DNA from: Escherichia coli
GTDB lineage: Bacteria > Pseudomonadota > Gammaproteobacteria > Enterobacterales > Enterobacteriaceae
Assembly (NCBI RefSeq): GCF_003334305.1
Contig: NZ_QOWS01000004.1
Length of the DNA stretch: 64,000 nucleotides
Direction: 5' to 3' (one strand)
The notes below the pieces were generated by a model. That model was given only the letters and a program-made list of their open reading frames with translations, was not told where the DNA came from and made no database searches. The position numbers and the translations under genes were made by a program. This document shows, piece after piece, positions 57,766 through 57,903 of this stretch (positions are counted from its first letter, which is position 1; each line of letters begins with the position of its first letter).

Positions 57766-57903
57766 TGGTTATCCCCGCTGACGCGGGGAACATAAGTTCG
57801 ACAACTTAAAAAATGATAACAAGTCCGGTTTATCCCCGCTGATGCAGGGAACATAATAAAAACTTTAACTAGTTCGGTTTATCCCTGTTTTTACAAGGAA
57901 TAT
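57766..57903 (-). CRISPR. Degenerate CRISPR remnant (3 decayed repeats, spacers of 32 and 20 nt)
   Basis: tggttatccccgctgacgcggggaacat / cggtttatccccgctgatgcagggaacat / cggtttatccctgtttttacaaggaatat. Confidence 0.8.

Follow-up and report, generated by a model that had tools for sequence, protein, structure and literature searches.

A three-repeat CRISPR remnant beside ygcE of Escherichia coli and its probable identity with CRISPR2.2

The ygcE-queE interval

The window is a stretch of 64,000 nucleotides of E. coli DNA (contig NZ_QOWS01000004.1, assembly GCF_003334305.1). In it, the gene ygcE, which encodes an FGGY-family sugar kinase, occupies 56241-57719 on the + strand, according to the list of open reading frames and to the RefSeq annotation of identical or near-identical records. 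Its stop codon falls at 57717-57719. The gene queE, also called ygcF, lies at 59275-59946 on the - strand, placed from the reading frame list and the annotation. Four features fill most of the space between the two genes: a small group of degenerate CRISPR repeats, a non-coding stretch, the array CRISPR2.3 and the leader of that array.

CRISPR2.3 extends over 58358-58935 and consists of 10 repeats and 9 spacers, transcribed on the - strand. Its leader, leader 2.3, is A+T-rich, occupies 58936-59274 on the same strand and adjoins queE. The leader is 89-96% identical to the repeat-adjoining stretch in E. albertii, E. whittamii and E69, the representative of a separate species-level cluster whose ygcE shows an 8% nucleotide difference. 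Features labelled 'CRISPR' by RefSeq in related genomes start within two bases of the equivalent of 58358. The degenerate repeats themselves are unmarked: in the annotation rows sampled, such features begin only at the main array and none lies under the match.

The repeats of CRISPR2.3 are not all alike. Its three leader-distal repeats (58358-58513) end in GGGGAGCTC rather than GGGGAACAC, and the very last begins with T rather than C. This form is an older variant, still present where the array is farthest from its leader. Over 57650-58400, strain 165 does not differ from the window, yet its CRISPR2.3 has 21 repeats against 10; the two arrays differ at the leader end. Another array, CRISPR2.1, lies beside the cas genes at 31897-32655 and ends about 25 kb from the degenerate repeats. 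It has a degenerate terminal repeat of its own at 31836-31864, which matches the consensus at 18/29 positions, precedes the first regular repeat by 61 nt and is the counterpart of copy 1, described below.

The group of degenerate repeats covers 57766-57903 and begins 46 nt past the ygcE stop. A G+C-rich inverted repeat, GGCCGGGC-N8-GCCCGGCC, lies at 57728-57751, between ygcE and copy 1. It forms in the predicted fold of the - strand; a T-run after it is absent on both strands, and no intrinsic terminator is called there.

The three copies all lie on the same strand. Since the crRNA sense is the reverse complement of the + strand, the array is read on the - strand from the queE side to the ygcE side, in the order copy 3, 20-nt spacer, copy 2, 32-nt spacer, copy 1. 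Copy 1 (57766-57793, - strand) is the leader-distal terminal repeat, degenerate and ancestral. It is 28 nt long, with the sequence TGGTT-ATCCCCGCTGACGCGGGGAACAT, in which the TTT run is short by one T and the hairpin stem is whole. Its loop base A (TGAC) occurs also in ordinary repeats of other lineages. Spacer 1 (57794-57825, - strand) has 32 nt and 28% G+C, and is invariable between strains. Copy 2 (57826-57854, - strand) has 29 nt, with the sequence CGGTTTATCCCCGCTGATGCAGGGAACAT, and agrees with the array consensus, CGGTTTATCCCCGCTGGCGCGGGGAACAC, at 25/29 positions; its stem is kept, with one G-U pair in the crRNA sense.

Spacer 2 (57855-57874, - strand) is only 20 nt long and has 15% G+C. 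Both spacers are A+T-rich, and the shorter resembles part of the longer. Copy 3 (57875-57903, - strand), with the sequence CGGTTTATCCCTGTTTTTACAAGGAATAT, again has 29 nt, but agrees with the consensus at only 19/29 positions and with copy 2 at 22/29. Its ten changes are all from G/C to A/T and all fall within positions 12-29. The stem survives by two double changes and one G-U pair in the crRNA sense.

These features had been recognized in a sequence-only reading, which reported three mutated copies separated by spacers of 32 and 20 nt directly after ygcE, one copy with a 1-nt deletion and one with a heavily mutated 3' half. Re-reading of the sequence reproduced the coordinates and spacings to the base. 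The deletion is the missing T of copy 1, and the heavily mutated copy is copy 3.

In the crRNA sense, a canonical 7-bp stem with a tetraloop is predicted in all three copies, both alone and in a context of 206 nt. The predicted folding energies are -15.1 kcal/mol for copy 1, -12.1 for copy 2 and -7.9 for copy 3, against -15.2 for a canonical repeat of CRISPR2.3. When the + strand is folded instead, copies 2 and 3 show a C-A mismatch.

That the resemblance to the repeat arose by chance is extremely improbable. Copies 1 and 2 score 24/29 and 25/29 without gaps, whereas 200 dinucleotide shuffles of 61.8 kb never gave more than 21. Copy 2 is recovered at three mismatches or fewer, where 0 matches are expected (100 shuffles). 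Copy 3, taken by itself, sits at the once-per-window level: about 0.9 matches of 19/29 are expected window-wide, so it is not significant at that scale, and an unrelated match of 19/29 is present at 14706. Within the local stretch of 638 nt, a score of 19 was reached in only 1 of 2000 shuffles. Copy 3 also opens with the exact 11-mer CGGTTTATCCC common to the repeat, on the same strand and in the expected place, 20 nt past copy 2. Copy 3 is significant only within this local context.

Against chance there are, in addition, the strand, phase and exact 11-nt start shared by the three copies, and the conservation of the element in thousands of genomes and its description in the literature. The sequence-only reading had offered similarity no better than that of shuffled sequence as grounds for rejection; since copies 1 and 2 stand above every shuffle, the remnant passes.

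Two open reading frames of 68 and 77 amino acids on the - strand were considered as genes and rejected. Their ATG starts are made by the repeats, they run antisense into ygcE, and natural deletions of 49 and 61 bp destroy them.

Correspondence with CRISPR2.2 and related elements

E. coli may have up to three arrays of type-2 repeats, among them CRISPR2.2 and CRISPR2.3, which are located between ygcE and ygcF, 0.5 kb apart (PMC3903273). CRISPR2.2 has been described as three type-2 (I-E) repeats with two invariable spacers (PMC4489801). As cited in PMC3903273, PMC3737337 and PMC4489801, it goes back to Diez-Villasenor et al. 2010. A highly conserved non-coding sequence of about 0.5 kb inside CRISPR2 was found in 18 E. 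coli genomes (Touchon and Rocha 2010, PMC2886076).

The element at 57766-57903 is very probably CRISPR2.2, that is, the small leaderless array in the ygcE-queE (ygcF) interval of the E. coli type I-E CRISPR-II locus, and a frozen relic (probability about 0.85). The identification is based on its position, its three repeats and two spacers, the gap of about 0.5 kb and its identity with K-12. The element follows the end of ygcE at 57719 and precedes CRISPR2.3 (58358-58935) and queE (59275-59946). It has three I-E repeats and two invariable spacers. The conserved non-coding gap between it and CRISPR2.3 measures 454 bp here.

In K-12 MG1655, the three copies are identical base for base and lie at equal offsets from the ygcE stop; the K-12 coordinates are about 2903421-2903558. 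The identification would fall if K-12 did not have these repeats and the published CRISPR2.2 were elsewhere; the repeats are present in K-12. In place, repeats, spacers and gap, there is no difference from the CRISPR2.2 of E. coli.

The feature is thus real, and its earlier description as a degenerate CRISPR remnant of three repeats beside ygcE is broadly correct and agrees, leaderless state included, with the published CRISPR2.2 (PMC4489801, PMC3903273, PMC2886076), but the feature was already known and is an ordinary one in E. coli. Having been named and counted since 2010, and being part of the K-12 reference, it matters little as a find. Its stability nevertheless makes CRISPR2.2 a useful landmark when the ygcE-queE region and deletions in it are typed. 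A literature search on the exact spacer and copy 3 sequences found no paper. The accounts of CRISPR2.2 in PMC3903273, PMC4489801 and PMC2886076 take up neither a duplication of 49 bp, nor how old copy 1 is across the genus, nor the diversity of the element, low against that of its flanks.

CRISPR2.2 shares features with three kinds of known element. The first is the functional I-E array. CRISPR2.2 has I-E repeats (24-25/29 and 19/29) and, by prediction, the stems of the Cas6e hairpin, but lacks the leader and the spacer turnover of such an array.

The second is the degenerate terminal 'anchor' repeat discussed by Almendros et al. (PMC3903273), as at CRISPR2.1's iap-proximal end. Copy 1 is likewise leader-distal and degenerate at its distal end, and, like 'anchor' repeats, it is conserved across lineages whatever the spacer content. 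Unlike an 'anchor' repeat, CRISPR2.2 comprises two more repeats and is no longer physically joined to the array at whose end it once stood.

The third is the regulatory mini-array. CreA/CreR mini-arrays make crRNA-like RNAs and are sited inside cas loci, in I-E systems in the gap between cas3 and cas8 (Shmakov et al. 2023, PMC10120712). The spacers of these mini-arrays have a partial match, beside a PAM, in a promoter close by (PMC10120712). What CRISPR2.2 has in common with them is a small number of degenerate repeats (two or three), conservation of a spacer, and the absence both of a leader with an IHF site and of spacer turnover. It differs in lying about 25 kb from CRISPR2.1 and the cas genes rather than in a cas operon or beside a toxin gene, and no partial promoter target with a PAM was found for it in the 64-kb window. 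The resemblance of CRISPR2.2 to regulatory mini-arrays is one of form only.

Distribution and history of the element

The 138-nt element is found in 4,157 of 5,426 complete RefSeq E. coli genomes, or about three quarters, and in 4,037 of them at a coverage of at least 80%. Most carriers (3,926 of 4,157) have at least 99% identity to the element of the window, which amounts to about one mismatch. Spacer 1 is exact in 4,049 of 4,063 carriers. Neither spacer turnover nor variants with added spacers were seen among the carrier genomes. Besides point differences, the element was seen to change only by repeat-mediated deletions, of 61 or 49 bp.

Strain 132 has lost 61 bp, corresponding to spacer 1 and copy 2. 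In E69 and in E. coli 2017-02-2CC, 49 bp are missing, corresponding to copy 2 and spacer 2; this loss can be explained by recombination within the 11 nt common to copies 2 and 3. The deletion in strain 132 and that in E69 and 2017-02-2CC are independent and repeat-mediated. Spacer 1 of 2017-02-2CC has four changes clustered within 10 nt. A search of RefSeq E. coli for E69-like alleles found none nearer than about 82%.

Some genomes match only as far as the ygcE stop, among them a listed O25b:H4-ST131 record, and their region beyond it may hold non-CRISPR DNA. In one of them, strain p4A, ygcE is followed by a gene for aminoimidazole riboside kinase and a gene for a carbohydrate porin.

Evidence on the age of the locus comes from other genera. 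A scan for relatives of YgcE in species-representative genomes found ygcE and queE convergent and 35-105 bp apart, with no repeats between them, in Citrobacter, Enterobacter, Klebsiella, Cedecea, Buttiauxella and others. This short, repeat-free gap indicates that the whole CRISPR-II locus is an addition specific to Escherichia.

Within the genus, E. albertii, E. whittamii, Escherichia sp. MOD1-EC7003 and E. coli FDAARGOS_1300 all have, equally far from ygcE, a repeat that starts with ATGGTTATCCCC and has the same 1-nt deletion as copy 1. In all of these but MOD1-EC7003, whose contig stops short of the leader and queE, it is the last repeat of a contiguous array that extends to leader 2.3. Because copy 1 has the same form in these lineages, it is the old terminal repeat of the locus and not a recent casualty. 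The earlier description of the remnant as a fossil array is apt, in that the element has no recognizable leader and shows no spacer turnover. Its description as decayed holds only in part: the deletion in copy 1 is old and shared with E. albertii and E. whittamii.

Most E. coli and E69 have a split form, in which copy 1, spacer 1 and further copies are followed by the A+T-rich stretch and then by CRISPR2.3. Across most E. coli lineages, unique A+T-rich DNA of 454 bp lies between the distal end of the array and the active CRISPR2.3 with its leader. Either an insertion may have split a contiguous array, or deletion between repeats may have made the contiguous forms from the split one. Both directions are possible, since repeat-mediated deletions are demonstrably easy here.

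The stretch itself (57904-58357) is non-coding, with 17-37% G+C, and was found in 4,129 of 5,426 genomes. It contains no open reading frame of 40 or more amino acids, and an Rfam scan of 57000-59600 at E <= 1 returned no family. Each of the 5,426 E. coli genomes offers it one place at most, and its plasmid matches include no true plasmid, only three E. coli chromosomes of 4.8-4.9 Mb filed as plasmids. The idea that the 454 bp are a fully decayed array was rejected on composition, given such low G+C beside the well-kept copies 1 and 2. Within the stretch, the 137 nt proximal to ygcE are far better conserved than the remainder, with a boundary near 58040. The part proximal to CRISPR2.3 (58041-58357) is hypervariable, with a pi of 5.1% in E. 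coli and a difference of about 35%, indels included, from E69.

Alternatively, CRISPR2.2 could once have been an independent array with the 454-bp stretch as its dead leader, rather than a part of one array that was split. The stretch borders on copy 3 where a leader is to be expected, its G+C content is leader-like, its first 140 nt or so are better conserved than the remainder, and it accompanies the remnant in both E. coli and E69. This origin is nonetheless unlikely. The stretch has no similarity to leader 2.3 or 2.1 adjoining their arrays, or to sequence elsewhere in E. coli genomes. Promoter-like sites are no commoner in it than in shuffles (3 in the scan against 4.5 expected, with no terminator), and no genome shows spacer turnover. 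In the outgroup species, moreover, copy 1 is the terminal repeat of a single contiguous array.

CRISPR2.2 is preferably read as a detached end of the array, now frozen. New spacers are not to be expected in CRISPR2.2, because there is no recognizable leader beside copy 3 and because copy 3 is heavily altered.

The short second spacer may have an origin within the element. Read in the crRNA sense, spacer 2 (AACTAGTTAAAGTTTTTATT) agrees at 12/20 positions with the opening 20 nt of spacer 1 (GACTTGTTATCATTTTTTAA), with p = 0.02 by shuffling and p = 0.014 against 20-mers of the adjoining A+T-rich DNA. Copy 3 is nearer to copy 2 (22/29) than to the consensus (19/29), and all four changes of copy 2 are positions that are also changed in copy 3. 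We infer from these similarities that the 20-nt spacer and copy 3 are probably a diverged tandem duplication of 49 bp, comprising copy 2 and 20 nt of spacer 1. A duplication of the 29-nt repeat with 20 nt of spacer, followed by decay from G/C to A/T, would give rise to copy 3 and the short spacer, and would account for the odd spacing of 20 nt.

In the regular CRISPR2.3 of E69, one repeat about 658-686 nt past the ygcE stop has the same GCAGGG change as copy 2. The change therefore occurs in repeats of a regular array too.

Sequence diversity and possible function

Diversity was compared in the window and 12 diverse E. coli strains, which were chosen by divergence of the far A+T-rich stretch. 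In this sample, the CRISPR2.2 element has a pi of 0.58%, with 4 of 138 sites segregating. The last 410 nt of ygcE have a pi of 3.2% (35/410 segregating; third positions 23/136), and the 46 nt between ygcE and copy 1 a pi of 4.0% (8/46). Beyond the element, pi is 1.7% in the first 137 nt of the A+T-rich stretch (12/137) and 5.1% in its remainder (43/312). By Fisher's test, the element (4/138) differs from the flanking non-coding DNA (63/495) with p = 0.0005, and from the third positions of ygcE (23/136) with p = 8e-5.

The same pattern appears in all complete genomes when three queries of equal length, 281 nt, are compared. Identity of at least 99% is found in 3,703 of 4,445 genomes for 57760-58040, in 977 of 5,373 for the adjacent end of ygcE, and in 2,352 of 3,848 for the far stretch. 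Relative to E69, the retained parts of the element differ at 4 of 89 positions (4.5%), leader 2.3 at 6.2%, the third positions of ygcE at 20.7% and the adjoining non-coding DNA at 27 of 183 positions. The contrast with the element has p = 1.4e-5 for the third positions and p = 0.014 for the adjoining DNA.

A relic decaying freely should vary at least as much as neighbouring neutral DNA, and the low variability hints that CRISPR2.2 may not be one. Decay as an ongoing process, which the earlier reading could be taken to imply, does not fit an element that is near-invariant today and has fewer polymorphisms than its flanks.

One way to explain this invariance is that selection keeps the mini-array. 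It could serve as an 'anchor' by which recombination protects or re-seeds the array next to it, its RNA hairpins could act where the convergent transcripts of ygcE and CRISPR2.3 meet, or the invariable spacer 1 could yield a regulatory crRNA-like RNA. Several observations favour such a role. Diversity is 5-7 times below that of the flanks (pi 0.58% against 3.2%, 4.0% and 5.1%), with the Fisher values given above, and identity of at least 99% is commoner at 57760-58040 than in the adjoining 281 nt of ygcE. Relative to E69, conservation of the element is similar to that of the functional leader 2.3. All three predicted hairpins are retained in the crRNA sense, and spacer 1 would have a canonical 5' handle, AUAAACCG. 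An 'anchor' role of degenerate terminal repeats has been proposed (PMC3903273), and regulatory mini-arrays occur in I-E loci (PMC10120712).

Taken as a whole, maintenance by selection is still quite unlikely. The baseline in queE is 1.3-1.6%, so part of the contrast arises because ygcE and the far stretch are unusually polymorphic, and the 12 strains were picked by divergence of that same far stretch. The E69-type allele is also present inside E. coli, in 2017-02-2CC, and recombination may blur the comparison. Retention of the copy 3 stem has a chance probability of about 0.05-0.16. The two stem polymorphisms (57784 C>T and 57846 A>T) both break a pair in the crRNA sense, and natural deletions of copy 2 exist. 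Nor do the spacers point to a target: the 64-kb window contains no seed match of at least 10 nt and no PAM-flanked match, and no protospacer was found in phages, plasmids or the 5,426 E. coli genomes.

Covariation in the hairpins was considered as support for selection and rejected, since variation is too little and both stem polymorphisms found break pairs. The polymorphism of ygcE is itself unusual: the gene differs by 2.4% from K-12, 4.1% from EDL933 and 5.5% from FDAARGOS_1300, while queE differs by 1.3-1.6% from K-12 and EDL933.

A frozen relic thus remains the preferred reading of CRISPR2.2. The narrower proposal is that CRISPR2.2, with its three hairpins and invariable 32-nt spacer, is maintained because its - strand transcript gives a crRNA-like RNA loaded into Cascade, or because it forms a structured RNA/DNA barrier between the convergent units ygcE and CRISPR2.3. 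It is slightly more doubtful again than selection in general. If true, selective maintenance would explain why variation is several-fold lower than in the DNA on both sides. That CRISPR2.2 barely varies between far more variable flanks hints, in a form that is cheap to test, that constraint and not plain decay may govern some detached CRISPR relics.

A route to such an RNA can be outlined. The terminator scan picked up none between CRISPR2.3 and the remnant, and the predicted hairpins are preserved, so read-through and cutting by Cas6e are possible. Read-through of the CRISPR2.3 pre-crRNA, with predicted Cas6e cuts at copies 2 and 1, would give one crRNA with spacer 1. It would bear the canonical 5' handle, and the putative RNA would carry GACUUGUUAUCAUUUUUUAAGUUGUCGAACUU.

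Searches with spacer 1 against phages, plasmids and the 5,426 E. coli genomes returned only chance-level matches and the locus itself. On both strands of the 64-kb window, the cas operon included, seed matches to the two spacers stay below 10 nt. Two 9-nt prefix matches of spacer 2 occur in the window; they are flanked by TAA and CCG, neither of which is an interference PAM. Spacer 1 itself contains a small palindrome at 57794-57807 (AAGTT CGAC AACTT), and the - strand transcript is predicted to fold into a hairpin there.
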